NCBI GenBank assembly: GCA_009602735.1
Contig: WELA01000963.1
Span: forward strand, 278,192 to 342,191
DNA length: 64,000 nt
Direction: 5' to 3'
Origin: Mesotaenium endlicherianum
Lineage: Eukaryota
Shown here: in pieces, positions 13,371 through 44,775 of the stretch
Numbering within the stretch: the stretch's first letter is position 1
Layout of the letters: every line of letters begins with the position of its first letter
The notes under the pieces: model-generated
The model's input: the letters and a program-made list of their open reading frames with translations, nothing else
What the model was told of the DNA's origin: nothing
The model's database searches: none
Position numbers and translations under genes: made by a program

Positions 13371-16314
13371 TGTTTAATTGTGCTCGCGACCAAAAACGGG
13401 ATTTCAAAATTGAAAATGTTCCATAACAAACCTCAAAGGCAAACGATAACTTTTGTGTGAACATTTAATAAACCATCGCAAAAACATTGCTGGCAAATGG
13501 TCTGCGACAACACTATCAAATATATATGCTTTATTTTTTTCCCATAGAAGTGACGAACACACGTGAGTCCTTCGACGTTTATCGTACACCTTTTCTACGT
13601 CTTGTCATTGATTTCATTTTATTACTTTCTCACTCGATCGTTAAGATGGAACCGATTCACTGTAATGAATTTGAAATTTTTTCTAAATTTTCACATGTGA
13701 TTTCTCAATGCAAATATTTTGGCTTTTATTATTGGTACACCAATTATCTATTTCTGTATGAAGAGGGTAAATTGGTATGTTTTCTTACCAGTATACTTTG
13801 AAAGCCTTAAGACCCCTATCAGTGTTCATCGTGCAAACGATGGCAGTAAAGTTATGCATGAACGATTCATAATTTACGATTTACAATTTACTTCAAGCTT
13901 TTTGCTATTGCATTTTATCTTATGCAAGTTTCACATCTTCCAAGACGACTTCTCAAAATTTGAGCACTATTGAATGGAGAAGTGTCCATATTAGTGTCCA
14001 ATCTATCTTCAGCTGCAACCTTCTGTGTGCACATTTTAATTAACTTTCCCATAAATTTGTCGTACATGTATTATTTTTTACGAAATAATAAAAAGTAAGC
14101 ACAAAACTCATGGATATTTGAATTTGACAAAAACGATCGCCAGTCCTCTTTTACTTTCTTAAAAAAAACTTTACAATACAAATGTCCGCTTTTGCTTTTC
14201 CTCTCTTGCCCCCATTTTTTTTTACAATATTTGATATCACTTTAACTGTCGACCTATGGGATTCTGATCCAAAGTTTTAATGTTGATTTCTCACAACTCT
14301 CGTTTGGTGTGTCAATTTGAGCGCACTTTCCATCATCTAGGCAATTGCTAGTGAATACTCTAGAATCTTTGCGCAAATTGGGCCGCACTTATAGACGAGT
14401 ATCGAGCTGTAATAATCTGATTCTCTAATTGGTATTCTAGTAATTTCTTCAAGCTAACGATCCGTTTTTTAGAGGCATCTTTCAATACTAGTGTCTGTGC
14501 ATACTACGCGTTCAATACAGAATATATGGTGAATAGTGTTCACATCACGAGCATAATCCTGCCTAATTTGATCCCTTTTGTTTCTTTTTTTTGGCACTTT
14601 CTAAAAAACTATCTGTGAAAAAAAAGTAATATATCTTTTTTGACCATGTATGTACATGCAATGTTCTTAGATGGAAAAATCAACATATTACATATAACCC
14701 TTGTTTGAATATATATAACCAGCCCATCTTAGTTTACCATAAAAACACATACGGCACATGTAAGGTTAGTGAAATCAATAATTAGATGTCGCATATAACA
14801 TGTCAACAAGGTTCACATCAAAATACACCAGACAATACCTGACACGTCCTTCTTTCTTAATTTTCACCCTGAGGCAAATTTCATCGACAATCTGAAATGG
14901 AAATATATACGAGTTGGATCGGCCGCCGAGCGTCAACGGCAAATTTGAGCGAATGGAAATGCAGATTTTACTATTCTATTAATTTCCTCACGTCCATTTT
15001 GGCCAAATTCTGGAGGATTTGTATCTGACAACAGACGGTAACACTTTCATGTCCGTCGTGACTGGTGTACCTTAGTCAAGCTTCACGAGTTGAATCGATC
15101 CGGCGGGACCCAAATGGAGTGCCGTCGGGGACCCTCAGTTCTGACGTATTCTGACAGCTCGTCGATCATGTCAGCATCACCTCGTCTCGGCTGGTACTTT
15201 ATTTGTTATTGCCTCACATGTTCTATCCGCGTGCACGTGAGCACAACCCCATCCGGCCTTGCCCGTTGTGTCCACATCCAGGTTTGCTCGCGATGTTTTG
15301 TCCTTGTCTTCAGCGATCCTTACACATCTGACATGCTTTGAATTTGTTTCCACCGTGCACAAACTGCAAAAATAGTCTGCTGATAGCTGGTCACATGTCG
15401 ATTTCAAATCTCTCCGTGCAATATCACTGCCTTACCCGCAATGACTACATTGCAAGACCAACCAGATGGGCTTGCTTTTGGAACCAGGAGGAATGATTGC
15501 AATTGGCGCCAACGCGGCAGCTATTCAGTGACTGTGCAGCTGGAGAATTCAATTCAACCACTTGATTTGTATTTCATTCAGCCACAACGAAGTGGAAGTT
15601 CATTCACTTACCAGCTGCAGAGTTCTATTTCACTTGTTGAGAAGTAATTCCTTCAGCCACAACAAAGTGAGAGTTTATTTGGACCATCCTGAATGAAAAT
15701 GTTTTGGCTTCTGCAAGAAACATTTATTTCTGGAAGTCCTTGCATATTTATGTACCTTGTGATGCAAAATAGTGTCATACTGCATAAGTGAAGACTCTCG
15801 CCTAAGTTGATAGCTTGAACCAACATATGCTGATCCTCAACGCTCATCTTGGGGTGAGTCTTTCTCCTCTTTTTCACACTACCTTCCTCTTTCACTAGCC
15901 GCTGGTATTTGTGGCCGTATACCTCGATTAGTGATCTAACTACCTTTATTTGAGCCTGTTTCTTTGCTTTTCAAGGAGGTTGCGTTCCCCTTATAGTACC
16001 CCCACGATCCACTGTCCTCCACCCGGGTTCATAAGTCGCCAATCATTCCTGTCACGCCCTACGTTTTGGCCAAAATAATGGAGGGAGAATTTTGAGATGG
16101 CGAACATCAGAGGCAGTGTTCAACTTTTAAAACCCAATTTGTTACGTGTTAGGTGCCGTAACCTGTAGGCGCAACACGAGTGCCACCTGGAAGGTGATTT
16201 AATTGCAAATTTAGTGAAGTAAAAGTACAAATGAAATTGGCCAACGACTGGCCGTGACCCGCCAAAATATTACATCAATTGGCGGTTATGTCTATGCCAA
16301 TTACGGTATTTTGT

Positions 16315-16657
16315 TGTCATTCTCTTCCGCAATGTAGGGCGTGTGCCCGACCTGATAATCCGGTTAATCGAAGTCTGGAGGTACACCAAGTCCATATTTC
16401 GCTCGCGCTTGGTTGGTTGTTGCACTGAGGTTGGACGTGGTTGAACGCCTCTTGTCACCTTCGACATCACATGCGACGTCCGATCATGTCCAATCGTCAA
16501 ACCCGACCTTCTGTAACCCGAAAACAGGACACGTGGCCGACGTGGACCACCGTGGACTGTGGCATACCTGCAACCTCGTCCTTCGATATCCTCCCGAGCA
16601 AAAATGCACATGCAGAGCCATGGCTTCATGCTAGTGGCTCATGTGATTATTCATACA
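16315..16657 (+). repeat. Left arm of a diverged ~340 bp internal inverted repeat (partner 33296-33610)
   Basis: catatttcgctcgcgcttggttgg..gaggttggacgtggttgaacg and aaatgcacatgcagagcc..gtggctca match the reverse complement of 33296-33530. Confidence 0.85.
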
Positions 16658-17045: not shown

Positions 17046-17984
17046 ATGGCCTATAGATATCAAGGAGGCCCTGTGGTTGAACGTGCTCCCATCCTCACAC
17101 CAGGGTATGCAAAATATGCAAGGTTTTTTATAGGTCCTGTTCAAGATCTGGGGCGCACAGAGGATGACAAACTCCCACAATTTGCAAATATTTTCCAATG
17201 CCCAGCTAATGGCGAGAAAAGTGGTGAGCTGGTTATAGACGACGCCAGAGTCAAGTATGTGAAGAAACTGTTGTACGGTATCACATACCTGATTGTGGGG
17301 TATCCCGAGGACTTCCATGCTACGGTGTGTGAAGCTGCTCTGTCAGACGGCTACCGTGTGATCATGAAGAGGGAGGGTAGGCACTACTTTAGCCGCACTA
17401 AGGTGCCGCGTGTTTCTCCAATGAAGTTGAAGGCGGAGTATAAGAACCGCTCAGAGGAGTTATCCATCAGGGAGGTGTTGAAATCCACCAAGTGCAATTT
17501 AAAGTGTACGCTGGTAAGCCGTCCGAGGATTAAAAGAGTGGCAAACTTGCATGATATGAATAAGGAGCCTTGGACAGTGGGGGTCACTATCATGGAGGCC
17601 TATCTCATTCACACTGCAGCCGCTGAGGAGTATAGGCATGTCAGGTGCCTGTCGGAGGAAGAAGTATCAGAGCGTCGATGCAACATCAATATGGATCATT
17701 TGCTCCACGGGCGCGCTGTTGGTGCTGAAGAGGCCAGGAGGGCAGAGCACGATCCTCGTCGTGTGGTTGGCGCTGTCAGAGAAGTTTCCCCGGCATCAAT
17801 CTTGCGCTCGCGTAAGGCATTATTTCCAGCACTTCCTAGGGCACTGCAGGCGCTGCTCATGCCACTTCTCCTGCTGCTACCGCCGCTTGGGTGTTGCTGC
17901 AGACTCATGCTGTTGCTACAGCTTCAATTTTATCCCCTGTTGCTGCTGCTGCTCCTGCTGTGCTCCTGCACTTGTTCCTGCTGA
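17046..17984 (+). CDS. Hypothetical transposon cargo protein (~310 aa), possibly frameshifted or spliced into an Ala/Pro-rich tail to ~18180
   Basis: Long ORF with protein-like composition starting MAYRYQGGPVVER. No family recognised. Confidence 0.5.
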   Translation: MAYRYQGGPVVERAPILTPGYAKYARFFIGPVQDLGRTEDDKLPQFANIFQCPANGEKSGELVIDDARVKYVKKLLYGITYLIVGYPEDFHATVCEAALSDGYRVIMKREGRHYFSRTKVPRVSPMKLKAEYKNRSEELSIREVLKSTKCNLKCTLVSRPRIKRVANLHDMNKEPWTVGVTIMEAYLIHTAAAEEYRHVRCLSEEEVSERRCNINMDHLLHGRAVGAEEARRAEHDPRRVVGAVREVSPASILRSRKALFPALPRALQALLMPLLLLLPPLGCCCRLMLLLQLQFYPLLLLLLLLCSCTCSC

Positions 17985-19347
17985 AGTGTTGCCTGCTCCT
18001 GCTGCTGTCACTGATGCCGTCCCTGGTGATACCACTGTTGCCAATGCTGAGGCTGCTGTTGGTCCCACTCCTACTGCTACTGCTGACTATGTTTCCGACA
18101 ATGGGGCAACAGAACAAGCAGCTTCCAGCGAGAAGCTCATCATCTGCTGGTGTACGCGGGCGTGGTCAGTGAGACTTCAATGACAACAAGACCAGAGGTA
18201 GGCTAGTGTGCTCTTGCTTGCACTGAAAACGTGTAATTTGTCTCCACCTGACGGGCCTTTACTTAGATATCCAGGATGCTTGTGAACATACTGAGGACCG
18301 AATGAAGAAATATGATAGGTCTTCCTCCTCCATGATGTTTTTGCCTCCAATGCCTAGAGTTAGCATATACATCGCTATTTTAATCAAAACTTAAGTTTAT
18401 AGAGTTTTGTTGCAGTGTTGGACAGGGCAATTTCAGCCTCAGGCACCGAGAACGCCGGAATGTCAGTAGGCGATCTGACCGAGCCCTCCAAAGGTGAAGA
18501 TTGGGATGACAGGGACTGGCCGGACCTCCTTGACTGGAGTGAGGAGCAGTGCACGTGCTAGGATGGAAACTATTGGGGGGAATGTGCACCTTGAACCTCA
18601 AGTTTGGCAGGACCGTGGAGGAGAGGTCTCTGTTGTAAATAATAGCTGTGTGATGCAAATGCATGTCAATAGCACGTGGACTTAGAGGGCCTAATAGTTG
18701 TACACATAGGCACCTTAGAGTTCCATGGTCCCTTTGCGAGCTCCTTGTATAATACTTGATGTTGATTTTGAGGCAGGTTGCGTTAGTAGCACTACTACTG
18801 TGTGAATTGAAGATTTGTACATATGCTTTTGAAATGCTTGGGTTAGTGGTGTTGGCGCCTTGTTGCTACAGAGTACCAACTTTTTTTCCTCCATTGTGTA
18901 GGGAATTTTCAGGCTCTTGAGGGTCTTATGCAGTCAACAAGTAACAAATGTACTTCCATGTGTGCACATGTGTGGTTGTGTGATGTTGAGTCACCAATAA
19001 CAACAAGCAATATAATCTTAGAAATTATGCGGATGTACTTGTGATATTGTGCTGCACTGAATGAAGCATTTACAATCACTATGTCACTACTTAATAATTG
19101 AATATTACACCTGAAGCTGTCGACAAGAGAATTCATTAATTGATTAAAATGTATATACAAGTTGAGGTCCTGTACCCTATGCTCCAGTACCACACCTCTT
19201 CTAACGTCAAGTGAATGTCAACAAACTGCCTTTCTTGTAGCTCTGTAGGGGATTTCAAGTCTTATTTGGATGTATACGTACATCTCGCAACAGCGCCAAA
19301 CACTACTCGTATGCTATGCTTCCTTTGAGAGTAATCTACTTGCTTAA

Positions 19348-20640
19348 TCAACTACGTATATAGTCCTCGATCTGAAGCAGCTTTGGTGCGCGGCTGTGGA
19401 ACTGGTTGAGAATAAATTTGTTGCACAAGTCGCCATTGTGTATCATTTTCAACATACACCCGCCCGTTTTAACACAGGGGGGTTCTCCGCACTCGCCTTT
19501 AGCCACCAACTTCCCGTGCAACTTGCACTCTCTCCACACGGCACAGCTTGTCCTGGCAAGGGCCCACTCTTCGTCGACATCTCGACCGATGTCCTTCTTA
19601 TCATTTCTAATGACATACCCGGGTAGATCCTCCGTCTCCCAGCAGCACCGTTGCAATAATTTGGGACGCCGGTATGACGACTGTATCCGCCTCTAGCGTG
19701 AAGGCCGGATGCAAAGTGAACTTGTCGATCACCAAGCGTCTTCTCCGATCGCGAACAGGCTTGAGCGGCCTCACCAGAGCCCTTAAATACTCCGTGGTTC
19801 CCCCGTGGTTCTCCCGCTTGTCTATGGGATGAGGGATGAGGTGCATGACGTGCACGAAGAGTCTTTCCACTCTGGCAACCCACACCTGCCTGTTCTTTCT
19901 ATCGGCTCCTGTGGCTAAGCCGTTGGCGGCCACTGACACGTGATCCCCCACTCTGAAGGTCTCCTTGGGCCCTTCATTGGAAGCCTTGTGGCACATGTAT
20001 ATGCGCCCATCAATCCATTCTTCGGCAGATACAATCAGCTAAATCCAGAGTTCTATGCAGCAGCCACTTGGATCTGTCCTGGCAATTCCTATTATTGAGA
20101 GTCGGCATATTGTTCTTCATGTACTTGTGCTCGCTCTCAAAGGACTGGCCCCACAGGTGAACCATAGGGCCGTACTGCTTCAAGGCAGTGCTGTAATGTA
20201 GCAGAGAATGCATGTTGTGACTCGCGCCGTTGAGCTGAGCCGTGACCCCTGCCTCGGCATCGGCCTCTCGCGCAGTGAATGCCTCTACAAAGTCTCTGTG
20301 GAAGTCCTCTGCTAGCCTCTCTATCTCGTCGACGTCCCTCTGGCTAAGGGAGCTCGCTAAGCAAATCTGTATGAGCTTGCACAGCTTCACCCAAAGCTTC
20401 AGTGCCTTGAACTTGTGCTTGTACTTGTCCGTGTTGAAGTAGGTCTGTTCCGTGTAAATCGTCTGCACCCTCGGATGACAGAAAGGTCGCAGCAAGGCAG
20501 GCATGAGGGGTGCGAGGGCCATGAATGTCATCCCTGTGTAAGTGCCGTGATCGTACATGGGCTTCTTCACCTTGTCGTCGCCTCTGTTCACCCTCGCCGT
20601 GTCGGCCCTGTAGTTGAACGCCATTTTCTCGAAAGGCGTC
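19348..20640 (-). pseudogene. C-terminal part of the CMC/EnSpm-type transposase (DUF4218-like segment and beta-rich C-terminal domain), separated by the gypsy insertion
   Basis: HNMHSLLHYSTALKQYGPMVHLWGQSFESEHKYMK matches the H..H....YGP....W...FE motif carrying the catalytic E. Followed by FRVGDHV..VARVERLFVH and IHNG..NKFILNQF in shifted frames. Confidence 0.85.
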
Positions 20641-21143
20641 TGTAGTGATTTGAGTTATTATATATTAGTTTGCATATATTTTAATGTTTTCAAATATATT
20701 TGGAGTAGTATTGTGTGGAGTCAAGTGTGAATAGGTACTCTAGTAACTTGGTTCATGTCCTTTGAACCTTCCAAGGCATTTTCGAAGTTAGAGGAAAGAA
20801 CTAGAAGAACTCCATGTGGCAAAAGTCAAATGTGCCATTTTTAGGTCAAAAGGACATGTGTACATTATTCTAGAAAGAGGTGGCAAGTTTTGGGATGTGT
20901 TGGGTGCCAACACATCAACATACACCTTCCTAGAAATTACTTATGTAGCAAGTATATAAACAAGAGCTAGAACATAGAAAGACATTCCAGAATCACTCTT
21001 GTACTTGCCAAAATCCAGAAATATATTAACTTTCAAGAAGCCATCTCTCTTTCAAGAAGCTACCACTTGTGTTCAAAGATCCTTGTCTTGAATAGATAAA
21101 GTATTCTGTTTTACTAAGTACTTTATCTATCTGTTTCACTACA
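20641..21143 (+). repeat. 5' LTR
   Basis: TG...CA ends; about 11 substitutions versus the 3' LTR by manual comparison. Confidence 0.97.
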
Positions 21144-21144
21144 G

Positions 21145-21156
21145 TGGTATCGGAGC
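21145..21156 (+). promoter_or_regulatory. Primer-binding site, tRNA-iMet type
   Basis: TGGTATCGGAGC 1 nt after the 5' LTR (canonical TGGTATCAGAGC). Confidence 0.9.
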
Positions 21157-21180
21157 TAGGCACTTTGGTAGCACAAGAAG

Positions 21181-22461
21181 ATGGCCGATCCTCAAGACCA
21201 ACAGCAAGCTTTCGAAGGAAGCCCTTCCTCTCCAAGACACCCTCCTCCAGCGCCGATGGGAGAGCCCACTCAAGAAAATCTGCAACAACAAGAAGCACCA
21301 CAAGGAGGAGCACACCCTCCTCCAGCGTCGATGGGAGAGCCTACTCAAGGAAATCTCCAACAACAAGAAGCACCACAAGGAGGAGCACCGTCAAATCCCG
21401 TGGCAGCCGCTATAGCAAAGTTGACCCCACCACAAGGAGTTCCCGCAAATGAGTGGGCAGCCTTCCTAATGACCGTCCACAACCAAGTGGGCTTGGCCAC
21501 CTATGAAGCAACCGTGCAAGCGTCAAGAGAAGCTATGGCTGCCATGGTTGCCCCTATTGCGAGCAATGCTCAAAATCCAGCCCCGGCTCAAGCGCCTCCA
21601 CAAGAGCCAACGAGAGCAAGGAAACTCATCAAGCCCGGCAAACCCGACACTTTCAACCCCGGGAAAGGTGCCAACCTGAATTTATGGCTCTACCAAGTGG
21701 AGACGTACCTCGCATTCCTTGAAGTACCCGAGGAGGACTACGTTCCCTTTGCCGTTACCTTACTTAGAGGAGCAGCAACATCATGGTGGCGTAACTATCA
21801 AGCGGCTATATATCAAGCTATGGCGCACCCCATGCTCGGCCAAGAGCCCCCACCATCATATGCAAGATGGGCAGATTTTCGTGAGGCCCTCAAGAAGCAA
21901 TTCATGCCCATCAATGCGGAGAAGATTGCCCGAGGAAAGCTCCACCATCTCAAGCAAACGACGTCCGTTCAAGAGTATACATCCAGATTTCACGCCCTCA
22001 CTCTTGAGATCCCCAACATGTCTCTCGAGGAGAAGATTGACCGCTACATCTTTGGCCTCAAACCCAAGGTGGCAAAGGAAGTGGAGTTACGCGACTTGAC
22101 GGACTTCTCAAAGATCATTGAAGTGGCCCAAAAGGTGGATACCTTGGATTTCAAGCACTCCGTGCCTTCATCTTCACGGGTACCGACGACGCGGGTGTAC
22201 GCAGCCCCTTCCACATCCGAATCTGGACCCACACCCATGGAAATCGGAGTTATTAAAAGGGACCCCGCGGCTGCCCGGAAGAGTGGAAGACCCTCCAATG
22301 ACACTTATGATGCAAGAAACCAGCAAGGAGTGAAAGCAAGACTCTCCCCGGCTGAAAAAGAAGCTCTCATGACGGCTGGACTATGCTTTTATTGCAAGGA
22401 AAAGGGCCATCGTGCACTTTCATGCCCCAAAAAGTTGTCAAAAAACGGACAGCGCCGGTAG
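21181..22461 (+). CDS. gag: Gag polyprotein
   Basis: 426 aa. [38 protein letters not shown] and CCHC knuckle [14 protein letters not shown]. Confidence 0.95.
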
Positions 22462-25400
22462 GCCAGGAGCCTACCACCCCAAGACCCACTTCACGAGAAG
22501 GCAACACGCCAAGTGAGGTGGAGACCCCCGTTGAAGACGACGTTCCAGCCCCAATGAGTTTGAGAGGTTACCTTGGAGGAGAGAAGGTCCACATCTTGGT
22601 GGATAGCGGAGCTCAAGGCAACTTCATTGCTGCAGATTTTGCCACCAAGCACGGTATTACTATGCGAACTCTTGACCACGACGAGGAGATTATGATGCCC
22701 GATGGATTCTCCTATACTACCCCTTCCAAGAAGACGTACCCCTTGGCACTCTCTATCAAGTCCTTCAAGGATAGAGTAGTGTTCTCCCCCATGCAATTGG
22801 GCAAGTACGACGTCATCCTAGGGACGCCTTGGTTGACCAAGCACAACCCCCAAGTTGATTGGAGGACCGGTACTATCAAGATCAAGAATGACATCACTTC
22901 AAGAATCTGTATTTTGCGCGCAATCCAGAATATCCAGACCCAAGACATCCAGAAGCCGGCACACGAGATACTATTGTCCGCCCTCCAACTCAAGAGACTT
23001 GTGAGGAAGGGACACGAGCTTCTTTTGGCCTTGATCACGCCAAAAGACATCAAGAAAGACATCGAGAGTCAAGAAGGCAGCCCCGTTCCCAAGGAGATAC
23101 AAGAAGTCTTAGAGGACTACAAAGAAGTGTTCTCCCCGGAATTGCCCAAGGGCCTACCCCCCAAAAGATTCGTAGACCACAAGATAGAGTTGGAGCCCGG
23201 AAGCAAGCCCATCTCTCGGCCTACGTTCAAAATGTCATACACGGAGCTAGACGAAGTCAAGAAGCAAATCAAGGAGCTACTGGAGCATGGCTTCATTCGA
23301 CCTAGCAAGTCGCCATTTGGAGCCCCGGTGCTATTTGTCAAGAAGAAAGATGGTACCTTGAGGATGTGTGTGGACTATCGCGCCCTCAACAAGATCACCA
23401 TCAAGAATCGATACCCGCTGCCGCGCATGGATGAGCTCATGGACCGGCTGGTTGGAGCCAAGTACTTCACGAAGATTGACTTACGGAGCGGCTACCACCA
23501 GATTCGCATCGCAGAACCGGACATAGAGAAGACGGCATTCAGGACAAGATATGGACATTTTGAGTTCATGGTCCTGCCATTTGGACTCACCAACGCGCCA
23601 GCAACTTTCATGACTATGATGAACACCATATTTCAGCCCATGTTGGACAGATTTGTGGTGGTATTCATCGATGACATCCTTATCTACAGCAAGACCCTTG
23701 AAGAGCATGCGAGACACTTGAAAGAAGTCCTTGAAGTATTGAAGCAAAACAAGCTGTTTGCGAAGGAGTCAAAATGCGAGTTTGCCAAACAAGAAGTGGA
23801 GTTCCTAGGTCTCCACGTGACTGCTGATGGCATCAAGATAGACCCCAAGAAGACCACGGTGGTGGAGGAATGGCCAACCCCCACGACCAAGAAAGAACTC
23901 CAGTCATTCTTGGGATTTGCCAATTGGTACAGAAAATTCATCCAAGGCTTCTCGCACATAGCAGCCCCCCTGACAGATCTACTCAAGAAGGACAGGCTAT
24001 ATACATGGACCGAGAAAGAGGAAGAGGCATTTCAAGAGTTAAAGCGAAGATTGACCACATCCCCGGTGCTCACACTCCCAAGTCCAAACCCAGATTGGCC
24101 CTTCCACGTCATCACCGATGCATCTTCCTATGCAATAGGAGCAATCCTGCTTCAAGACCAAGGCAAGGGACTGCAGCCCATCGCCTACGAGTCAAGGAAG
24201 CTAAATCCAGCCGAGCAAAATTATACAACCACGGAGCGAGAGGCATTGGCGATTGTACATGCCTTGAAGGTTTGGCGCTGCTACGTTGAAGGACGCAAAG
24301 TACTGGTCACCACGGACCACGAGGCGTTAAAGCACCTCCAAACGCAGCCGTATCTCTCAAGGAGACAAGCAAGATGGAGCGGATACTTGCATCAATACAA
24401 CGTCACAATTCAGTACCAGCCCGGCAAGACAAACCCGGCTGACCCCCTCTCAAGACTGCAATTAAATGCAGTAATGGTATCCCTGAAGACAGATCTGGAA
24501 GCTCGATTTTCAGTCGCCTATGAAAGAGACCCTTACTACAAGAACGGAGAAGCAGCCTTGGACCCATGCAAGAAGCAAGAAGGCAATTATTGGGTGAGGC
24601 AAGATACGGGCCAGAGATGTGTTCCTAATGACTTAGACCTCCGGCTCTTGCTTCTACGAGAAGCACACGACAACCCTCTTGGAGGACACTTTGGAATCCT
24701 AAGGACCACGGGCGTTCTAGCTAGGACTTATTGTTGGCCAGGCATGTCTAAGCAAGTCAAGGAGTACTGCAGGAGCTGTGACACATGCCAAAGAATCAAG
24801 CCATCATCGCAAAAGGCGGGAGGACTCCTCCAACCACTACCAATCCCCGAAAGACAATGGACGGACATCTCAATGGACCTTATCGTGGACTTGCCCGTGA
24901 CACCTCGAGGCCATAATGCAATACTCACGGTGGTGGACAGACTTACCAAGATGGCTCATTTTATTCCCACGACAACTAAGGCTACAGCACCACAACTTGC
25001 AAGGCTCATCTTTGACAACATCTTCCGACTCCATGGACTACCATCAAGAATTGTGTCAGATAGAGATCCAAGATTCACAAGCCATTTCTGGAAAAATCTC
25101 TTCAAGAACTTGGGTACATCGCTGGATATGTCTACCGCTCACCACCCACAATCAGATGGGCAAACCGAGCGTATGAATCGTACTCTAAAGACCTCTCTAA
25201 AGGCCTACGTGTCTACCCTCGAGCAAGACTGGGACATGTACTTGACCCCCCTCGAGTTTGCCTACAACAACACTACGCAGGCCTCTACCCAAGAGTCCCC
25301 ATTCTTCCTCAACTATGGCTTCCATCCGACCACGCCACTGAGCTTCACGGCTGGCCATGATGAAGTACCTGCAGCCACAGATTTTATGGAGACATTAGAA

Positions 25401-26048
25401 GCAGCCCTTACAGCAGCGAAGAAAGCTCTACAACACGCGCAAGATGCTCAAGCAAGAGTGGCGAACAGATCCAGAAGAGAAATTACGTACAGAGTGGGTG
25501 ACAACGTGTTACTATCATCCAAGAACATTTCCCTGAACAACAGGCCTGCCGGCAGCAAGTTCTCTCCCAAGTATTTGGGACCCTTCAAGATTATCCAGCA
25601 AGTCAACCCCGTTGCTTTCAAGCTAGAACTTCCCCAGACTATGCACATCGACCCCGTATTCCACGCTTCCCTCTTCAAGCCATATGTGCAACCCGACAAC
25701 AAGTTCCCAGGACGTGTGACAACCCCACCAGCCCCAACAATAGTGGATGATCATTTGGAGTACGAAGTGGAAGACATAGTGGCTATGAGAAATTTCAGGA
25801 GACAGCAGCAATACTTGATCAAGTGGAAAGGATATCCAGATTCGGAGAATAGTTGGGTGGCGGCGCACTACCTTGACAAAGTTCAGAGAAAGTTGAAGCG
25901 CTTCCATGCCGCCAACCCCCATCTTGGACCAGCCCCAAGTCTCTCTACTAGAAGCCCGAAGACTTCAGGGAGGCAGCCTGCCACCATCAAGAAGCAGCAG
26001 AAGACCCCTTGGAGGCAGCCTGCAAGAACAAGAAAGAGGAAAAATTGA
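22440..26048 (+). CDS. pol: Pol polyprotein (protease, RT, RNase H, integrase, chromodomain), in the -1 frame relative to gag
   Basis: [62 protein letters not shown] and chromodomain [21 protein letters not shown]. Confidence 0.97.
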
Positions 26049-26820
26049 CATTAGACACTCTTCTCTTCTCGCAGTTTCTGGACAGAAAACTAAAACTGCT
26101 ACTGGTAATAGGTCTCTGCATAATAAATTCTGAAAATTTACCTGGCTGTAGTCCATGAGTAGCCGGTCATTTAGAGTCCAAGTTTGCTCAATTTGAAGCA
26201 CTGGTGAGAGAGATATNTGAGAGAGATATGATGCTCAAAGTAGAAGGGGGTCCGACTGCTGGCATTGTTAGGGCAGAATATGCCTTCTGACATTGTGCCC
26301 TCCCCTGAACTTGGAATGCTTTGAAACTCAAGACTCTGGTAGAACATCTTACAGCGCCCAGTTTGAGACTTAGTTTGGAACATTTGGAGAAGTATAGAAG
26401 GACTTGTGATTTTCAGAAGTTTCTGCACAGATTTGGAGGAGTGCCTACTCTCTCAGCTCTCAACGACACTCCAGAAATGAGAATGCTCTCAAATTTGGTG
26501 ACCCGGTAGAGTTCTCCGACGCGGTCCGTCTGGCACTCGAATTTTTAGATTTGAAGCAGTTCTGTGGCCGCTATGAATTTCTGAATTTGTGGCAGATTTT
26601 GGGCCAACTTGTACAATTTTCTTTATCATTAAGGAGTAGGCTAGCCAATAAGGTCACACCACCTACGACATTGCCTAGTCTACCTTACATGTGTAGCACC
26701 TGACTTGGCGCCTTTGACTAGTCCTCTTTACATGTGTGGCATCTGACTTGAAACTGTTGACTAGTTTGCTCCACATGTGTAAGACCTGACTTGACGCGCC
26801 GAGACGTCGCTTTTTCTATC

Positions 26821-26830
26821 GGGGGGGTGA
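26821..26830 (+). promoter_or_regulatory. Polypurine tract
   Basis: GGGGGGGTGA immediately before the 3' LTR. Confidence 0.85.
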
Positions 26831-30249: not shown

Positions 30250-30288
<39 letters not shown>

Positions 30289-31510
30289 CTGCTATTTGTA
30301 TGTTTGCAGTTATTGGAGCAAAAGAGGATGCTGGCATCCTCGTTAACAGAAGCACCGGTGTGCAAGGGACCGACAGGGAACCCCAATCTGTCCCCGGCCA
30401 CAACCACCAAGAAGAAAGCCACAACTCCATGAGAGGTACACAGCCTCCTGACACCTTGAGAGCATGTGCATGCTAGACTGTCAACTGACTCTGCTTGTTG
30501 GCCACACGGTCTTAGAAAGGGCTCAACTTCCATGTTATGAGTGCAGGCATTCCACGTGAAGAGGAGGTTTCCATTTCAGTCCCAATGTGGGGGAACAACA
30601 AGCACGGCTATGAACAGGAGTGGGAAGATTGCAACAACAAGAAGTCTCCACAGAACAGAGACTCCGACCTCAACAAAGAATTTGTAGACTGTGCACATGG
30701 TGAGTAGGTGCGGAATCGGTGGTGTCTCACTTCATTTGTACTCCATCTGCATGCTTATGCACATTGTAGCAATCTCAGGCCCTCCTGCGTTGGCTGATAG
30801 ATCACAAGCAAGGAATGAGCAGGCCCTATCAGCGCAAGCGACACTTTGATGCTGCGACCTGTGACTGCAGAGAAGACAACTCCGGAGGGAGGCTCCTGCG
30901 GTACGTATTTGAGCAATTTAAAGAAGAGGACGCCAAAATCCGAAGCGCCGCCACGTAGGAGGCCTCCAGCTACGAAGTCAGCCCAGACAAACAAGAAAAA
31001 GAAGCAGGCTGCAACTTCAGGCGGGAGTTTCGCTGCTCCAACAACTAAGAAGAACCACCAGCAAAAGGAACGCCGCGTGTACTCTGTGGAAGAAGAGGAC
31101 ATGGCAACACAGCCGAGTGAGGCAGAGACGACAAGCTCAGGTGGGCAAAAGATCGATTGGACTCCCTGTTGCACGCAACTTTGCTGATGCACGCATATCT
31201 CAAGAGTTCAGCATCAATGGTGCACCTCATTGAACATCTGCACGAGGGTAGGTCTACACATGATTATCAGTTGAAGAAACAGGAGCGCTTGTGAGGGATA
31301 ATAGCATGCCAATATTGGGGCCACCCGGAAGATACATTGTCACCCGTTTCAGTTGCACTGAGCAGACTCTGATTACAAACCGAAGCCCCGGGAGCTGCGT
31401 GCTGTGGAGCTGCTTGCTGTGGACTGAACAAGGCGGGAGCAAGAGGAGTGCCAAAGGCCTGTGTACAATAAGAGGTGCTAAAAGAGATGCTCTGGCAACA
31501 TGTGTAGAGA
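29880..31510 (+). pseudogene. Multi-exon cargo gene remnant: coiled-coil region followed by a basic low-complexity region
   Basis: Exon-like blocks with AG/GT borders (e.g. 29880-30159, from 30310) and charged helical translation. Several stops. Confidence 0.4.
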
Positions 31511-31979: not shown

Positions 31980-33094
31980 CTAATGTAACCTGCCTGTAAA
32001 ATAATATGAACTAATGTACAAGGAGCTCAAAGAGGGGCCTTGCAACAGCAAGGACCACATATGTACAATTACTAGAACCTTGTAAAGGCCCTCACACTGC
32101 ACAGCTGCCATCGCTCTCTGCTTCCAGGTTGCAGCATCATCATCCTCCGGCTTTGCCCTCCACAATTGCACATCCACAATAGCATTTAGTGTGTTAGATG
32201 GAGGCGCAACAGTAGCAAAACTACCTGCCATTGCATGTTGGGCACAAACAACACAGGAATTGTCCACCTCAAATCCTTCACATCAAGAATTGCCTACCTC
32301 CACTCCCCCCATGTAGCAGACAGAGCACATGTTGAAACTTAAACCGCTTTCTTCCACAGCAACATCCTCACCCTCAGCTTCAGCAATTCTTCTTGCACGC
32401 TTTTGGGTGCCCATGTATCACCCAGACACTTTCTGTGGGACTGAATTGCATCTGATTTCAAGTCTCGCAATTTACCCAAACCGTATGAGGCGTTTTTTGA
32501 CATCTGTAATGACTCCTTCATCCATTGGACAATATCATTTGTGACTCTATCAAACTCTCTCTCCCTATTTGGCCCCATCTCCTCAATTGGATCGTCATCA
32601 ACTGGCTAGAGAGCTGCCACTACATCCACAGCTAGCACTACATCTCCCTGTGATCTCTCAGGTTCTAATAATGGAGCTTTGCCCTTGTCTGATGTTGATG
32701 CCATGACAGACACGACTTTGTCCTCCTCTAGAGCTAGCTAACGAGGCTTGTTTCTCAGACGGAAGGCTTGATCATAAAAGACTGCAGCCTTTCTTCTGAC
32801 CTAAGATAAATGCTGATTGATGGTGATGTTTATATCTAATTTCGCCATCGCATCACTCTGGATTACCTCCAGACGAGTAATGTCATATGCAAGACTACTT
32901 TTCAAGGCTTCAATCCTTTTGATTTCCACTTTGGTTTCCTCTATAAATTCCTGCAGTTCATCACATAAATTGCTGTGCCGCTGTTTCTTAGTTGGACTCA
33001 CCGGTTCCTCATCAGCACTACTTGTACCTCGTAACCCTTCACCCCCTTTGCTTTTGGACATTGGCATGTATTGGCTGTTGTCGCTCACGCACAA
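31980..33094 (-). pseudogene. Cargo gene remnant: coiled coil plus a possible PHD-like Cys cluster
   Basis: LCDELQEFIEETKVEIKRIEALK coiled coil and CSVCYMGG..CEG..SCVVCAQH, interrupted by stops and frameshifts. Confidence 0.4.
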
Positions 33095-33295
33095 GACAAT
33101 GCAATGTATGAATGATAAAAGCTAGCACAGCTCGAAGAGAAAGAGGGCCCGACTTTGTGACCAGCCTGAAATCTTGATTCTTGATATTAAATTCATCACG
33201 AGCACCACAAGAAACGGGAAACTCACCTGACATGCACACAATAGCCTATCTACGCCCTGGCCGAGGGTCCCATCTGTGGATATATTTGTCTTCAA

Positions 33296-34320: not shown

Positions 34321-35078
34321 ATGTCAGAGGACTCTACTTTCGCAGGATGTATCTGTTCCATATGTTTAGGTGAAAACGCACTTGTGCTTAATTCTTGTTG
34401 TGCGAGATATTCAGTGCGATGAGCACAAGGTCAGCGGTTCAGATTTCAACACTCTGCACAATTTTAAAAGAGGTCCTGGACTGCATCCACATTTATGTTT
34501 GGCAGATATTATGAACACACCCGGGGAGGTACAAGATTGCGGCCACAGGTTCTGCAAAAGGTGTATTGAAACAGCACTTGAAAAAGGGTAAGTCTTGGTC
34601 TTAATAGTTACCTTCCCTCAATAACTGGTGCTGCAATTTATGAATGGCACTCCAGTGTGTAACTGACTATTATGTGCAGTCCACTGTCATTTGCAGGATT
34701 CTCCACACACCTGTGAGCCACATAATGTTCTAAGAGCGGCGTGTTGCCAATTTTGCTCGTGCACCGATTTCCTTGCAGTAGGGGCAAGTGTCCCCTTTGT
34801 AGGAAGCTTGCCACTCGACGGGGATGTCGACGGTTGGATGCTTATTTGTGTGCATTGATGCACAAACTTCATTCCATTACCGACGGTTGTACACTTGTCA
34901 ACAGTTTAAAACCGTTACAAACAAGTGACTGCGTGGGTGGCGACTATGCCGACGAAGACACAGAGTGAGTTACTTTAATCTTGTCCAAATTGATGGGACG
35001 CCTGCAGATTGGAACAGCGCTGCTGTACTCCACTGCTGCTATGCTTCTTTCACACACAAACTGCTGGCCAAGGAGAGA

Positions 35079-35209: not shown

Positions 35210-36173
35210 TGCAAACTGTCAGTCATTTGGAGTTCTATTCACAGATTGAGCAAGATACTGCACTACAGCTCATTACACCATTTTCTTACATGTGACTGTC
35301 TCCAATGGCAGGCCGCCTCTCGACGAGATTGTCTACTATCCGATGAGCAGTAGCTTCATCTGCGTTCCTGTTGTCTTCGTTGGAAAAGCGTGGGCAAAGA
35401 AAGAGGCGGGCATACATCATGCTGACGTCTTCTTCAATGGCTAGTGCATAGAGGTACAGAAAGACATATTTGCAGCTTTCTTCTGTGATGACGACGAACC
35501 GTTTTGGGTCTCAAAAAAGAATGTGAAAGATTATCACATTAAGGAGGATGAGGCTAAGTACAGCAGGGGTAGCACCGCAGCTCTTTCCAAAAAGTGTAGA
35601 ACCTTCGTGATCAACAACCCCAGGCGGTCGTTGGAAGCAAACATTGTAAAGACCAGGAAGGCAAAATTGCCTCCCTTTTTGACTCTGTTCTGGAGGTTGT
35701 ATAGGGTTAGTCCCATTCCGTGCGGTTGTCAGTCTGATACTTCATTCCAGCCGGTTGGATCCTGTACTGCTGCTAATTGTCATAGTTCAAGGTACTTATG
35801 CAGAGGAAGGTCCTTGGAAAATAGCAACGGCTGTAACCATAGTCCCTTGTAGTGTATCGCCCACTCGTGTACAGGTGTCACTGTGTTGCATATGTATTTA
35901 GGATCATGACTCTTCCCCTGGGGACTGAGCAAATTCAGATAAGTTGATGAAAGTCCCGCAGGAGAAGCCAGTTGTTTTTTAGTGGCCTCGTGGAAGTTGT
36001 ATCACAAGAGTCCAGCACATATGAAATTACAGCTGCTTGTTCAATTGAGTTGGAGCACACCAACAAGCATTGAGTATGAGGTCGAGGTCAAGTACTTTCC
36101 GACAGGGTACTCTACCTCTAAGTTTTGTGCAGTGAATTCAGCGCGTGTTCAAGTCTGGCGGCATTCCAAATAA
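34321..36173 (+). pseudogene. Spliced C3HC4 RING-finger gene resembling Polycomb RING1, followed by degenerate PWWP-like segments. Exons approx. 34321-34369, 34506-34587, 34779-34964, 35312-35660, ~35900-36173
   Basis: Spliced RING reads CSICLDIMNTPGEVQDCGHRFCKRCIETALEKGRGKCPLCRKLATRRGCRRLDAYLCALMHKL. Downstream AFFCDDDEPFWVSKKNVKDY and PGD*..F*WP..EVKYFP contain stops. Confidence 0.75.
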
Positions 36174-36333
36174 TTGTCACTCAAATGATCACTAGTAGAA
36201 GCAAATCACCCACTGCGAAAAGTCACGACATACTCATTGCTACTTTAACTTTCTCCCACACATTGTGCCGTCATCAAAGGAGTCCTATCAAGCACCTGTC
36301 CTTATAGATCCTGGGATACTTGTTGCCTCTCTG

Positions 36334-37952: not shown

Positions 37953-37956
37953 GAAT

Positions 37957-38402: not shown

Positions 38403-39477
38403 TCTCGAATGGGGGCCTGAAGGGAGTGCAAGACAAACATAACATGAGTAGCTTCAGGGCAGGTGGCATACGTCCAGGTTGAAGATTCGCTACTTAATCA
38501 GACAAATACGTGCGCACAAGGGTGGCACAAGAAACCAACAAATTTGCCTTGTTTCATCATGATATCATGCCACTTATGGCCTACATTCACCTCCAAAGTA
38601 CAGGTGAATTGCAATGTACCTCTCGGGATGCATAATCATCCTCTTCTGTGGGCGGGGCGCCGCATAATAGACCGTCATCCTCCTCTTCTGTAGGCGGGAC
38701 TTTCTAAGGTCCATAGCAAATCAGAGGAATTAGGATGAAGAATGTTGCAGATAGATAGTGTAAGATGTAGTAATACACTATTCACATGGGAGGGAAACTC
38801 CCTTCGAGAATTCGGGTGCAATAGCGCCCAAAATTCTTTGATACCTGAAGAAAACGACATGAAATCAGAATGTCAAGATGAGTATATTGGATTAGCGACC
38901 TTTAAACAAATAAGTATGTCTCGATAGATAACTATAAGCAAAGCTGGAAATTTCGTGAATAGATTCAAAAAAATCAAAAATCCACATTTTGAATATCCGG
39001 AAAATTCGCGCCAGTTTCCCCCCCATGACTATTCACGACCATTTGTGTAACCACTTCCTCGTGGAGCCGCACTCTGTCATCGAAACCGTCGGTTGTCCCC
39101 CGTCGACGGGTTAGAACCGATGAAGTATGCGCCAACGACATTGACGCTGACCTGGAGGTCGTTGTTCGACGGCAGGCGTCGAGGTAATACTTCAAGACCA
39201 CGTCAAGAACACTCACTGTGTTTCCCCGACGTTGTACATGTCGGTACATCCAGATGATAAAGTGTACAGCGGAGCACGCGTGGTTGCAACACGTCAAGAC
39301 TAACCGCTGTGTTTCCAAATGACGAAGTGTACGGTGGTACCTGGGCGCGTTAGCGGATTTATTCGCAACTGATACAATCAATAAATCAGGTAAGGTGCTG
39401 TACTCCCATCGCAACTCAGAGCACTCAAACAGAAATGGTTGCGTAATGAGGCATCTTTTGCTGATCCATCTCGTACA

Positions 39478-39849
39478 ATGGCAGAGTCAAACTCGGTTGA
39501 CAGGATTGAGGTGTTTCTGAAAATGGAGGGTGTAAGAGCTCATATAAACAATATGCTGGAAGACGTCAATGAGGAAATTTGGGATCTTGAGCTGATTATT
39601 ATGGTTAACAGTAGCTTGCTACAGGCAAGCAATAAATTGCTCAAAGTATATTTCAAGGAACACGTTAGGCGGCAACTCGAAGATGCACAAATGAGCGAGT
39701 TGTTCAAAGAGTGGCAGAAGGATGACAAGAAGGATAAGGAGCGAATGACGCGTCTTTTAGACAGGAGGAGGCGGCATGAAGACAAAATTTACGGCCTTAT
39801 AATATTATACATAATATTAGGCAGACCAGGCAATGCAAGTGAGAAGTAA
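39478..39849 (+). CDS. Hypothetical coiled-coil cargo protein (123 aa)
   Basis: Uninterrupted ORF from ATG with charged helical composition. Confidence 0.45.
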   Translation: MAESNSVDRIEVFLKMEGVRAHINNMLEDVNEEIWDLELIIMVNSSLLQASNKLLKVYFKEHVRRQLEDAQMSELFKEWQKDDKKDKERMTRLLDRRRRHEDKIYGLIILYIILGRPGNASEK

Positions 39850-41794
39850 GGTGGAGCACATAAACAGAGCATAGTGGGCAATGAGTTCAATGGAGATTCT
39901 ACACATAACAAAAGTAACAGCTTCGCCTTAGTATCAGGCAGGATAGATGTATGTTAGTGAGACGAGTGAGGTGGCCTAATACGTATGGGGGATTATTCTA
40001 CAAATGGATGATAGCAAACCAGTAAACATAGGTTCATATATGCGCATTAGCTGTGTATTCAGGAAGTCGTGGGCTTGCATTTTATCCACATTATTTTGGA
40101 AGCTTTCATTGTGAAATAACGCCTTTCAAACGGAGTGGCAACATTTTAAACAAGCTGTGTGTGCATGTAGAAGAAGCAGTACATAAGGTGTAGGAAAACT
40201 TCATTCATATCAATCCGCATACAGCTTGCGCAAATGCTCACCATTGCCAGATGTATAAGACCTGTTCAATCTTACTGGGTACTGCACCTGCACCTTTCAC
40301 CACTATCACCATCTAAGACTCTGGCTATTGTGCTATGTACACCTCATGCCTCATCTTCTATTTCACTATCTCATCCTGTACACATGGCTCCGGCCTATCT
40401 TGCCCCTACTCAGTAGGCCACCTTCTATAATACACCGCTGATGATCAAGCCTCATCGAGTTGAGCAACAGCGACGTGGACAAGTGTGCAGCGCACACACC
40501 AATCTCTCAAGTTGAATTCTTGTAATAATTTGGTGAATATGGGTCCTAGTCCGATCCTGAGCACCTTCCCAGCAACCAACATGTCAGTCGATGACTTCAC
40601 ACTCAGTATGCTTGTATCCATAAACTTATGCCTGCTCTAAGCATCAACAACAGATGCACATGAATAAAACATGGTTGGCACTTGCGTGCGAATGCCGCGA
40701 CTCACCTTCCATATACTTCTTTATATAGTCGTCAATCTGGCCATACCACTCCGGTTGCTCCTGAAAAGTATTATTGTGAGAGGTTGCCGCGGATAATGAA
40801 ACATAACACAATAAAACGTTGAGTGATTCCATGGGTACCATACGCGGATTATTTTGTCCACCCGTACAGAGGAGGGATGTGAGGTTACGCCATAGGGTGC
40901 TAACTGTTGCGAGAAAGTCACAAACATTTTGCGCAGCTCCTAGTGGAAAATCTAGCCAACATTTCGATTGTTTGCGCAATTGTAAAAAAGTCACATTCCT
41001 GCAAATTTTTTTCAAAAGAGTTAACAGCCCATGGGTTACGCAAACTAGCAATATAATGACACGGGAAGTCACGTTGAGGTGTGCGCAAGTGCTCACCTGT
41101 GGGGGCCCTCTCATCACGCGCAACTGACTGCTGCGACCTCCTAACTACCAGCATCGAACACCTTTCTCCTCTCCTTTGCACCGCCTCAGGATTTTCAACG
41201 GCTGGACCTTCCACCGCGCTTGCAGTGGCGCACATATTCTTTGGAGATCGTCCCCTAAACTTCTTGGGTCCAGAGTTGGGATCCCCCTCTTGTGGCCGTG
41301 ACATTGGGGGCCTTCCCTTCCTCTTGTTTTCGCTCTCTGCACTGCACCAGTGGGGCCTTGTCCCCCGCCATTGTTTACTGCACACATGTTCAAAATGACA
41401 CATACGCTCACTATCACCTACAACCCCTGTTCATATCTGGCTCCATATGCAGTGGCAATGCACGAGGTTGCAAGGCAAGATAACGTGATCACGTGCATGG
41501 AAATTAGACAGGGATAAACTGCAGCCACTCACCGTGTGCCACGGAATGTGCAACCCCTCCCCCCTGTACATTGCATATGTCTGCATACATGACACAAGCA
41601 CACAAGCACATCAAGCACGTCTCCATCATTGATATACAAGATCCAATTCAGTCAAGACTCTTCAGTACTAAACGTAGAAAAAAAAGAGCGAGTACAAAAG
41701 ATAGGCGGTAGATCTCACTTTTGTGAATGTGATCCTTAAGGCAATTAAACTAATTGTGCCACTTTCCAGCTACGGCAAAGAATAATAAACTGTA

Positions 41795-42220
41795 TCAGCA
41801 TGCACACTCTGTGAATCCAATTTGCAAGGGTCTCGTACCCTGCGTGGCGACTCGGGTCCTGGCAAGCAACTCCTGGCACCTGCTCGCCGTGTAGCTTCCC
41901 TCCACGTGGTTACAGTGAAATCCAAGATAAAGACTCAATGCATCTTGCTTGATGACTTTCAGCTGTCGACGGTAGAACCTTCCCAGTTCAGCCGTAAGAC
42001 AGCCACGGCGCTCTAACATCCCTTCTTTTTCCTTGTCCAGCTCGCCTCCCACCTCTTCAAGTTTTGCTCTTTCAAGTCGAAGCTCCACTTCCAGCCGCAT
42101 GCTAACAATGTCATGCTCCTTCTGTGCGCGCTCTCTTTTGTCCAACCCAAGACTTTCGTCACAACTCTTCGTTAGATAATAATCTGCTAACCATTCTAGG
42201 TCTGAAACAGTGGAACCCAT
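41795..42220 (-). CDS. Hypothetical coiled-coil cargo protein (141 aa)
   Basis: ORF with heptad-like RLEVELRLERAKLEEVGGELDKEKE. Confidence 0.45.
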   Translation of the reverse strand: MGSTVSDLEWLADYYLTKSCDESLGLDKRERAQKEHDIVSMRLEVELRLERAKLEEVGGELDKEKEGMLERRGCLTAELGRFYRRQLKVIKQDALSLYLGFHCNHVEGSYTASRCQELLARTRVATQGTRPLQIGFTECAC

Positions 42221-44775
42221 CTTGCCTCAGTTGGTGTCAACAACCTCCGCCGTTTGAAATGCTCACAGTGGGAGAATTATAGAAAAAGACACGCAATTGC
42301 GCATCAATACCACACTTCCCACACTCTATTCCGTAAGCACAAATGAGCAATTGCTCAATCTCAAAAAGGCTTTGTGAATCACAAATCATCCTCATTGGAC
42401 ACATCGTGTAAAAGAATGAAGAATAATAAGCTTGCATGGGGAAACACAGATGTTCCTCTATATCGTGCTCAAGATTTTCTTACTCCGGAACTCCTAGTCA
42501 TCAAACATCATTTTGCACGAAACAGCATGTGCATGGCTTAGCAAGTGTTCGTTCGATAATCTCCACACATGTTAAGATACATGCAGCTTATTGGATACAT
42601 GCAGTAAGAAGAAGGGGCGGCAAGAGAAGAAATAAAATGTTTAGGAGCCTATGTTTCTCCTATCACGTGAAGGTCTCCGCCAAGTGCCATGCTAGAACTT
42701 TGGCTATTGTTGTCATACCATGTATCTTTGCAAAGGCTGTGCCTCACGTGAGCTTAGATCACCTTCATAGTCGGCATTGGTCGGCACTTGCTCTCTGCAT
42801 GTACGGCGTACGGGCTCCCCCCTAAACGTCGAAAGCGTACGACGTTCGACGACAACAAAGGACATTCAACACTTCCAATGACTCCGTTATTAACCGCCAC
42901 CTTAGTAACAACACGCCACCCATGACGGATGTCATAGTGGAGGCTCAAATAGTGTCGCAAATTAGTTCAACGACGCAAACTACCATTAAACTAAAGAGAT
43001 AATGCTGGATGTCGGAGTGGATCACGAAATTGTGTCATAATCTCCGAGTAATGATGCCAACCATTTCGAATTCGCGATTGCGGATCGAGAGTGGAAGACA
43101 TATAGCAACGTGTCAGCCGCAGACGGCCGGAAAACGCAGCAATTGATTTTGGAGTTCCGTTCGGCTGTGGATCGGCGAGGAGCGCCGGAGAATTTTGCTT
43201 TCCATGGACAACAAAATCCATTTGAGGCCTCAAATAGAACAGAATCCATTGGAACGGGCCGATTCGGCTCGAATGGAAATCCATTTGGTAAAGTGGTCAA
43301 AATGGAAACGGTCTAGCCCATGTCCAATGTCAGGGTGTTTGACAACAATATAAAGGTAACATGTCTGTGGAAATGAATTATCAAAAATACATTTTCCAAA
43401 TGTTGTTAGAGTATTTGTTTTTCCCTCTTTGTATCCTTATTCTTTCGAATTTTGTTTCAGATGATTTGCAATTGAAATAATACTACTTTCATTCACAACC
43501 GTGCTACTCTAGGGCTTAGCCCCTTATACCACTTAGCACTCCCTCATGCTCCCCTCATACATTGTAAGTACATTCTTCTTAATTCTTAGTTGTTTAGCGA
43601 GGGGTGAACAACGATCTTGAGAAAGGACTTGTAAGGCGCCCGGGGATAAATAAGGCAGGTGCGAAAAGAAGTCCCCAACCAAACTTTACTCACGCTTTCA
43701 AGTCATTTACTATCACTTACCAGCTTGATTGGGATATTGACAAAATTTGTACAAACAAGGTGTGTTCTTGAGTGAACAGATTGGTGCATCAAATATTATA
43801 GGTACTTGAAAGTAGTCACAATAGTGACTAAGTTGACATGAGCCGTACGTAGATTAGTAACAACACGTCAGAAGTCGCGTCAACTCAGCGAAATTTACAT
43901 GTAAATGCGAATTCAACCCTTTTAAGACCAACAAATATAACTTTGTATCAAAAGCGTTAGATGGCACACAAAGCAGCGGCGTCAAAACATACTTGACTTG
44001 TATAGTTTGCCGTTGGAATAGCTCTTCCAATAGGACGTGGCCCACCGTGACAGAGCGGGCAAAGTGGCCCACTAACACGCACTTGTCAACAGTTGCCTCA
44101 CTATACTATTGAAGCAATGCTTTTCTGTAAGCAACAGTGACATTGATACGCATGGATGCCGATTGCAAGTCAGTGCATAAAGGTAGCAAGGTGTAAGAAG
44201 GTATGAATATAGGCAGTTGTGGAGGCCTGATGGTAGTTTGTGTAGAATGTGGACAAATATAGTATTTAGAACTCTAGCGCTCTAGTATCTAGACTATGCT
44301 TAGCCATGCTAGGCCGTATTCAATGAAGTTGACATGTATAAGTGCCGTACAGTATTGTACACCACTGTAATAGGCGACCAGCTGCGACTCTGGTCTGACG
44401 GTATCGTGTGAAACCACGTGGTACATGGGAATCTTCCAGCCTACAATTTGAGGATGCCTTTTTTCCAGTTTGTAACACAGTGCCAGTTGACCATGCTTCG
44501 ACAATGAGCAGTTGGTCATGGCGGAACAGAAACTTCGTTCCTGAGCTGCACTTGGAGACAGTATAGTCTGAAGTTTTCCTCTTCGTGTCGTTGGTCATGA
44601 TAACTTGCGTCCGAAGAATGAGAGATATTCGCTGATGGGCATTTTTGTACATTTGAGTATTGCTAGCTCAGGTTTCGCTTGCTGGGCCTAGCTCCGAAAT
44701 TTGAGATGCCAACCAGGTTGAAGTACCGTGCCAGTTAAAGTTAGTAGTCAATACCTTTTTGGTTCTTCTCTGAAT

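Follow-up and report, generated by a model that had tools for sequence, protein, structure and literature searches.

A dead, Gypsy-interrupted copy of a giant, very probably EnSpm-type transposon carrying a predicted bacterial-type cytosine methyltransferase gene in a presumed zygnematophycean alga

Giant EnSpm/Plavaka elements with chromatin-modifier cargo are already published for red and brown algae, and this recent literature lessens the rarity of such elements. Published reports describe giant elements of 17.4–19.1 kb with PAG1-3 in Bostrychia (10.1101/2025.02.11.637652), giant elements of 16–20 kb with 4–5 open reading frames (ORFs) in Chondrus (PMC6431247), and DNMT retrotransposons in Symbiodinium and Klebsormidium, for which self-methylation is proposed and de novo CG activity was shown in some cases (PMC5890265). 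Here we analyse a stretch of 64,000 nucleotides of contig WELA01000963.1 (the window), whose host we judge from a flanking gene to be a zygnematophycean alga, from the algal sister group of land plants. It contains a dead copy, interrupted by a Gypsy retrotransposon, of a multi-copy 22-kb element that is very probably an EnSpm-type cut-and-paste DNA transposon and that carries genes for a putative bacterial-type C5 cytosine methyltransferase and a RING finger protein.

The window element has in common with the red-algal giant Plavaka/EnSpm elements its superfamily, size class, accessory genes, chromatin-related cargo and mostly degenerate copies. Unlike them, it sits in a streptophyte alga at low copy number, and its cargo is a PF00145 C5 methyltransferase and a RING finger instead of an N6-adenine-type methylase (PF01555) with SET and a ParB/2OG oxygenase. 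No Pfam match to the red-algal PAG2 (PF01555 + SET)/PAG3 (ParB/2OG) cassette was found in the ORFs scanned, a result that excludes only PAG2 well, given that PAG3 itself escapes Pfam. Fungal TET/JBP elements of the EnSpm, Plavaka and ESTA groups also combine a CMCT transposase with a 5-methylcytosine (5mC)-acting enzyme, and the fungal EnSpm families share the CAC..GTG ends and the 3-bp duplication, but they carry an eraser (a dioxygenase), in contrast to the writer and approximately 8–10 further ORFs seen here (PMC12730594). The DNMT retrotransposons likewise place a C5 methyltransferase inside a mobile element, in one case in a streptophyte alga, although they belong to the LINE, DIRS and Gypsy groups, and the DIRS and Gypsy cases have Dnmt3-related enzymes (PMC5890265), whereas in the window a DNA transposon carries a stand-alone gene whose nearest family is bacterial. 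Sizes of 10–50 kb, extra genes, nested insertions and a pseudogenised transposase are shared with giant KDZ/EnSpm/Sola elements of Ectocarpus (PMC12477816) and Plavaka giant repeats of Amoebidium (PMC11244446). Sola1-1_Ec32 of Ectocarpus has a prokaryote-type methyltransferase domain, but of the N4C/N6A type and fused to ParB (PMC12477816), and the Amoebidium clusters, unlike the window element, are rich in tyrosine recombinases (PMC11244446). What sets the window element apart is the host lineage, the stand-alone bacterial-type C5 writer and the RING finger; no description of a cargo set of bacterial-type 5mC writer plus RING finger was found in the literature searched, with Repbase reports and paywalled papers outside that search.

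Ends and copies of the element

The termini, their TTT flanks and the subterminal motifs lie where a preliminary description of the window had placed them. The 64-kb window has one occurrence each of CACCCTGA (14865-72) and TCAGGGTG (43330-37), with TTT on the outer side, and the subterminal motif AATGGAAA is enriched at the ends, with four of its seven matches in the 64 kb no more than 100 bp from the two ends. Repeated subterminal motifs are a feature of EnSpm/CACTA elements, as are 5'-CAC..GTG-3' termini (CMCT clade), which are present. The caution that an 8-bp inverted repeat with TTT could be chance was well placed: 20 inverted pairs of 8 bp that start with CAC and have matching 3-mer flanks occur in the window, so such a pair alone is at chance level.

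The boundaries were settled by depth steps and unlike flanks in public sequencing runs aligned to both ends. This comparison covered 13,814 of the 21,775 bp of the element, with 27339-35299 (the transposase 5' half and the RING exons) outside it. In X1, a DNA run possibly from the source sample, summed contig depth, which is not equal to copy number, was 43.6–56.7 in eight left flank bins and 565–2002 in the 20 bins of 14772-20451; on the right it was 295–1340 in the 20 bins of 35300-43439 and 49.2 in the next eight. Six contigs diverge from the window exactly behind 43337 (median 240 nt, agreement 0.45), and the left terminus is preceded by two other flanks in X1 and X5 contigs. Dispersed copies with different flanks, a further EnSpm/CACTA feature, are thereby present. 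Relative to the flank value, median depth is 19x in the left arm, 17x in the methyltransferase/PWWP-like region and 8x in a variable block (38963-42218), which we take to mean that the family has about ten to twenty-odd copies and that one block varies among them. In another copy, a contig joins the methyltransferase 5' end (38509) directly to the right arm (42684).

The element is real, with a gross span of 28,473 bp and a net span of 21,775 bp after removal of the Gypsy insertion, and the preliminary description of a giant, multi-gene element of about 22 kb net holds; the element is multi-copy, its ends recur and homology stops at the termini. Contigs of other copies in X1 and X5 have an extra 11 nt at 14873, after the first 8 bp, which the window copy has lost; with this piece included, the repeat shared by the two ends is imperfect and about 20 nt long. 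The TTT/TTT target-site duplication is low-complexity and was read from the window copy, the one copy whose two ends could be matched to each other. Metagenome contigs do not contain the exact right-end 22-mer, and an Rfam scan gave no match. In X5, short terminal pieces (14873-14928 and 43033-43337) occur at high depth and then diverge, which suggests a small non-autonomous derivative within a transcript. Inside the variable block, 38785-38836 is a 52-bp piece of a far commoner repeat (depth near 10,000), with loose contig ends at its two sides (10 and 7 contigs).

These data bear on two other explanations of the span. It could be a composite in which an 8-bp repeat that arose by chance encloses either what is left of an endogenised virus or several independent elements nested in one another. 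Viral insertions, too, typically show orphan ORFs and an intron-poor methyltransferase of bacterial type (PMC12344493, PMC11244446), there are internal sub-boundaries at 38513, 38785-38836 and 42684, chance terminal pairs are common in the window, and the depth data leave out 37% of the element. However, repeat boundaries of similar depth mark both ends, which share the 20-nt imperfect repeat and the motif, Pfam scans contain no viral hallmark domain, and two IMG/VR scans, sensitive to close relatives only, gave no relative, which makes a composite quite improbable. It is very improbable that the cargo consists of single-copy host genes that lie between transposon ends by chance: the RING gene has an intron and its exons are not covered by run depth, but the methyltransferase and PWWP-like regions stand at about 17x the flank, and the true host genes (UNC-50 exon on the left, DUF179 on the right) lie outside the ends, at single depth where covered.

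Transposase and cargo genes

The transposase runs on the minus strand from approximately 29170 to 19350 and contains frameshifts and two stops. An H(3)H motif and candidate D, D and E residues are present, and C(2)C ends in a stop; further support for EnSpm comes from one weak relative and Atlas leads. Atlas neighbours of the 5' part are Transposase_21 and Plavaka clusters (0.85–0.87; leads only), and its best 10 family matches all fall within one family or clan. A phmmer search of 1.84 billion proteins gave two matches (P0121 and P0122); P0122 aligns across both candidate D motifs (pairwise E 2e-12) and itself matches Plavaka at E 9.5e-6, just under the cut-off. In IMG/VR, none of 88 candidates was a relative of the transposase alignment (close relatives only). 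Beyond the E motif, the 3' part continues into a stretch that looks BAH-like by eye only and then a Cys-rich tail. The transposase is classed as a putative divergent EnSpm/Plavaka-like DDE enzyme, broken in the window copy. EnSpm is defined by CAC..GTG ends and a 3-bp duplication, and under the published definitions the ends fit EnSpm and not Plavaka A or B (PMC12730594): the Plavaka termini (TGT..ACA or CATCA..TGATG) are not matched by the CACCC..GGGTG ends here, with CATCC in one other copy.

The C5 methyltransferase named as cargo in the preliminary description was confirmed at the domain level (Pfam PF00145, E 1.3e-32; TIGR00675 above cut-off). Motifs I, IV (PC), VI (ENV), VIII and IX/X are all present, with catalytic motifs at 37856/37673/37547/37412 that are invariant across 16 aligned sequences, followed by a family-type C-terminus; the window copy has two frameshifts and one stop. 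In a protein search limited to sequences of 364–2000 aa, the best 120 of 1117 matches were single-domain proteins of 364–470 aa with 40–48% identity, the named ones bacterial and none with a eukaryotic label. A genome scan kept 80 of 564 loci, from many bacterial phyla and at 39–49% identity; the catalytic half was found in 80/80, the C-terminal half also in 41/80 and the N-terminal 175 aa in 0/80. No family could be assigned to this N-terminal part, for which Atlas gave no usable match, a PDB sequence search found nothing and a single-sequence fold was unusable (pLDDT 38). None of three IMG/VR candidates was a relative of the methyltransferase (close relatives only). According to a published table, the host has DNMT1, CMT, DNMT3 and DRM, and the same source defines orphan and ChloroDNMT lineages (PMC12344493); as to eukaryotic DNMTs, the ChloroDNMT sequences of that paper lay outside our comparison. 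By these matches the enzyme appears to be bacterial-type and not host-type. Because their depth is like that of the element, the methyltransferase and the adjoining PWWP-like region are supported as family cargo, not single-copy host genes.

The RING gene, with its GT-AG intron in frame, passes two Pfam cut-offs and has a frameshift near the first Cys pair, and the presence of a RING domain is certain at the sequence level. Of the RING1-like ligase of the preliminary description the RING finger is confirmed, and RING1 orthology is not supported. RING2/Ring1B ranks first among structure matches and six of the top eight are RING2 chains, but the best single RING2 chain reaches only E 0.015 and RNF4 ranks second. 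A C-terminal RAWUL domain is a feature of RING1/PRC1 E3 ligases; no RAWUL match was found in the downstream frames scanned, a decayed region, and a PDB sequence search found nothing for the second RING exon. The PWWP-like piece may be a continuation of the RING gene. A (GA)n expansion with an assembly gap (35075-35207) lies between the two parts and may hide a junction.

The window copy is dead, given the frameshifts, stops and Gypsy insertion in its transposase. This, the bacterial-type methyltransferase and the absence of a 4-kb cargo block from some copies are points that the preliminary description did not contain. C-to-T decay of the window copy is enriched at CG/CHG (19/34 vs 34% background, p 0.007), a hint only, as the count rests on 80 rows pre-selected from >1,200. 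Copies elsewhere appear to be read in places: run X5 is RNA-like, with a spliced GT-AG joint in a host gene and no depth on intergenic flanks or most of the element, and in it one 2,600-nt contig spans 36034-38513, just the methyltransferase gene, at 93% identity and with a one-base insertion at the frameshift of the window copy. A transposase relative has a contig in X5 and X21. Contigs of these runs give neither strand nor level, and in most samples the family appears to be silent, with transcription of single copies in one study.

Possible role of the cargo

We favour, at a probability of about 0.6, the reading that this dead, Gypsy-interrupted EnSpm-type copy belongs to a family whose bacterial-type C5 methyltransferase and RING protein likely set the chromatin state of the family's own copies. 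In CMCT elements, a DDE transposase binds to the ends and the subterminal motifs, cuts the element out and inserts it again, with duplication of 3 bp. Transposase and methyltransferase would be supplied in trans by intact copies at other places in the genome. The methyltransferase, acquired from bacteria and lengthened at its two ends, would methylate cytosines of element copies that are new or have been replicated, so that these resemble host-tolerated DNA or the element limits its own activity, and the RING protein may ubiquitinate a histone or silencing factor at the same copies. Precedents for self-acting cargo exist in the literature cited above (PMC5890265, PMC12730594, 10.1101/2025.02.11.637652, PMC12477816). 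The methyltransferase is probably selected, functional cargo. That the RING protein and a reader act with it as one module is doubtful, and an 'own epigenetic module' as such, of which half is confirmed, would be plausible. A full writer kit, in which a horizontally gained C5 methyltransferase from bacteria, bearing a new targeting domain, together with a Polycomb RING1-like ligase and a reader marks the element's own copies, is unlikely.

Several results count against the favoured reading. Summed contig depth is evidence that sequences are repeated, but not that they are linked. The transposase has no direct Pfam or NCBIfam match, the BAH-like stretch has none in Pfam or the PDB, and P0121 was discarded as a relative because its match is an ankyrin-repeat artefact. 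For the C-terminal part of the transposase, 0/1063 candidates passed (proteins of 367–2000 aa only) and 0/55 metagenome stretches were confirmed. The PWWP and PHD-like readers of the preliminary description were not borne out: PWWP reached 12.8 bits against a cut-off of 25.6 (Pfam E 0.17), with no match in a PDB sequence search or a further Pfam scan, and the PHD-like piece had no Pfam or PDB match. Every recognisable gene of the window copy is broken. In raw RNA reads of X6 (6% read) and X12 (24% read), depth on the methyltransferase is zero, at an adjacent host gene depth of 9.6 and 27.9, and X9 (13% read) has next to nothing on the left arm. Methyltransferase frames differ at 8 synonymous and 11 non-synonymous sites (expected 34% synonymous; 19 pre-selected sites only), a tiny neutral-looking sample with no sign of purifying selection. 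C-to-T decay of the window copy is enriched at CG/CHG (19/34 vs 34% background, p 0.007), a hint only, as the count rests on 80 rows pre-selected from >1,200.

Since the only selection test is neutral-looking and tiny, passive cargo stays a serious rival, though a somewhat unlikely one: the transposon would be real, and captured or horizontally acquired genes would have been amplified by hitch-hiking, in the style of Pack elements, with no role. The breakage of all cargo in the window copy, the dispensable 4-kb block, the lack of methyltransferase reads in X6 and X12 and the many ORFs without a family (most of them) fit this view. However, the methyltransferase gene is present in full, with every catalytic motif, and stands at core depth, a relative is one gene-sized contig in RNA-like run X5, and simple capture of a host gene fails to explain an enzyme that is not host-type.

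Further features of the window and significance

The further ORFs, in alternating orientation as previously described, include no Pfam names other than the methyltransferase and RING (Table 1). An exact look-up in a protein collection found 0/9 window ORFs, and the fold of ORF A was unusable (pLDDT 29). ORF A and the 33121-31983 ORF, which lie on opposite sides of the transposase, are each framed by two inverted paralogous blocks, and among the matches listed there is no mutual similarity between the coding parts of these ORFs. Because the paralogous frames hold ORFs without coding similarity, the arrangement suggests that an expression cassette was duplicated and then refilled with other genes.

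The Gypsy insertion, which splits the transposase, has 503-bp long terminal repeats (LTRs) that are identical at 492/503 positions (11 mismatches), a GCGTC duplication, and open gag (429 aa) and pol (1230 aa, chromodomain) frames. Its LTR has a summed depth of ~8e5 vs 45 for single-copy sequence and is covered by RNA reads, so this chromovirus is an extremely abundant young family. An X1 contig at 2x single depth joins the left junction of the element (14837-14870) to the Gypsy LTR (20641) in opposite orientation; whether it is a second haplotype or a duplicated junction is unexplained. On the right flank lies a spliced, expressed DUF179 gene at single depth, whose protein is 99% identical to a protein labelled jgi/Mesen1, a label of the zygnematophycean alga Mesotaenium endlicherianum, with Closterium and land-plant proteins next; on the left, an UNC-50 exon reaches E 1.8e-4, just under the cut-off. 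At about 47583-54806 there is a DIRS-like tyrosine-recombinase retroelement (recombinase, RT, RNase H, gag-like ORF) with split direct repeats.

Table 1 Features of the element in the window, in order of position.
Feature	Position	Strand	Evidence or remark
Left target-site duplication TTT	14862..14864	no strand	sequence
Left terminus CACCCTGA with subterminal AATGGA(AA) motifs	14865..15120	+	sequence, other copies' contigs
Small ORF, 105 aa	15656..15970	-	no family
Block paralogous to 33296-33601 (inverted, 66-78%)	16316..16657	+	upstream of ORF A; depth doubles
ORF A, 312 aa from ATG, Ala/Pro-rich tail in another frame	17046..18180	+	no family
Block paralogous to 31543-32080 (inverted, 67-70%)	18686..19205	+	downstream of ORF A
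Transposase 3' part, frameshifted	19350..20640	-	H(3)H at 20210, candidate catalytic E motif at 20147
Nested Gypsy/chromovirus LTR retrotransposon, outside net element	20641..27333	+	Pfam, repeats, depth
Transposase 5' part, frameshifts and stops	27339..29170	-	candidate first D (28092), second D (27834), C-x-x-stop (27777)
ORF pieces, helical and basic low-complexity	29604..31230	+	no family
Broken ORF, helical start and Cys-rich piece (earlier taken as PHD-like)	31983..33121	-	framed by paralogous blocks
C3HC4 RING-finger gene, intron 34588-34778	34322..34965	+	Pfam, structure matches
Weak PWWP-like ORF piece behind (GA)n expansion	35250..36170	+	Pfam E 0.17; depth 846-863
Putative C5 cytosine methyltransferase gene, ~715 codons	36334..38493	-	Pfam, TIGR00675, alignment
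Variable cargo block, ORFs 39469-39846 +, 40647-41430 -, 41798-42226 -	38513..42684		~half core depth; skipped in one other copy
Right terminus with subterminal motifs, end TCAGGGTG	43037..43337	-	sequence, run depth
Right target-site duplication TTT	43338..43340	no strand	sequence

The element extends giant chromatin-armed EnSpm-type transposons to zygnematophycean algae. If the writer-kit reading were true, a foreign methylation context may be added to the host genome. If the enzyme is active, the family would be a route of a bacterial methyltransferase into a plant-lineage genome, and it would become testable why a transposon should bring along the very mark by which transposons are usually silenced.

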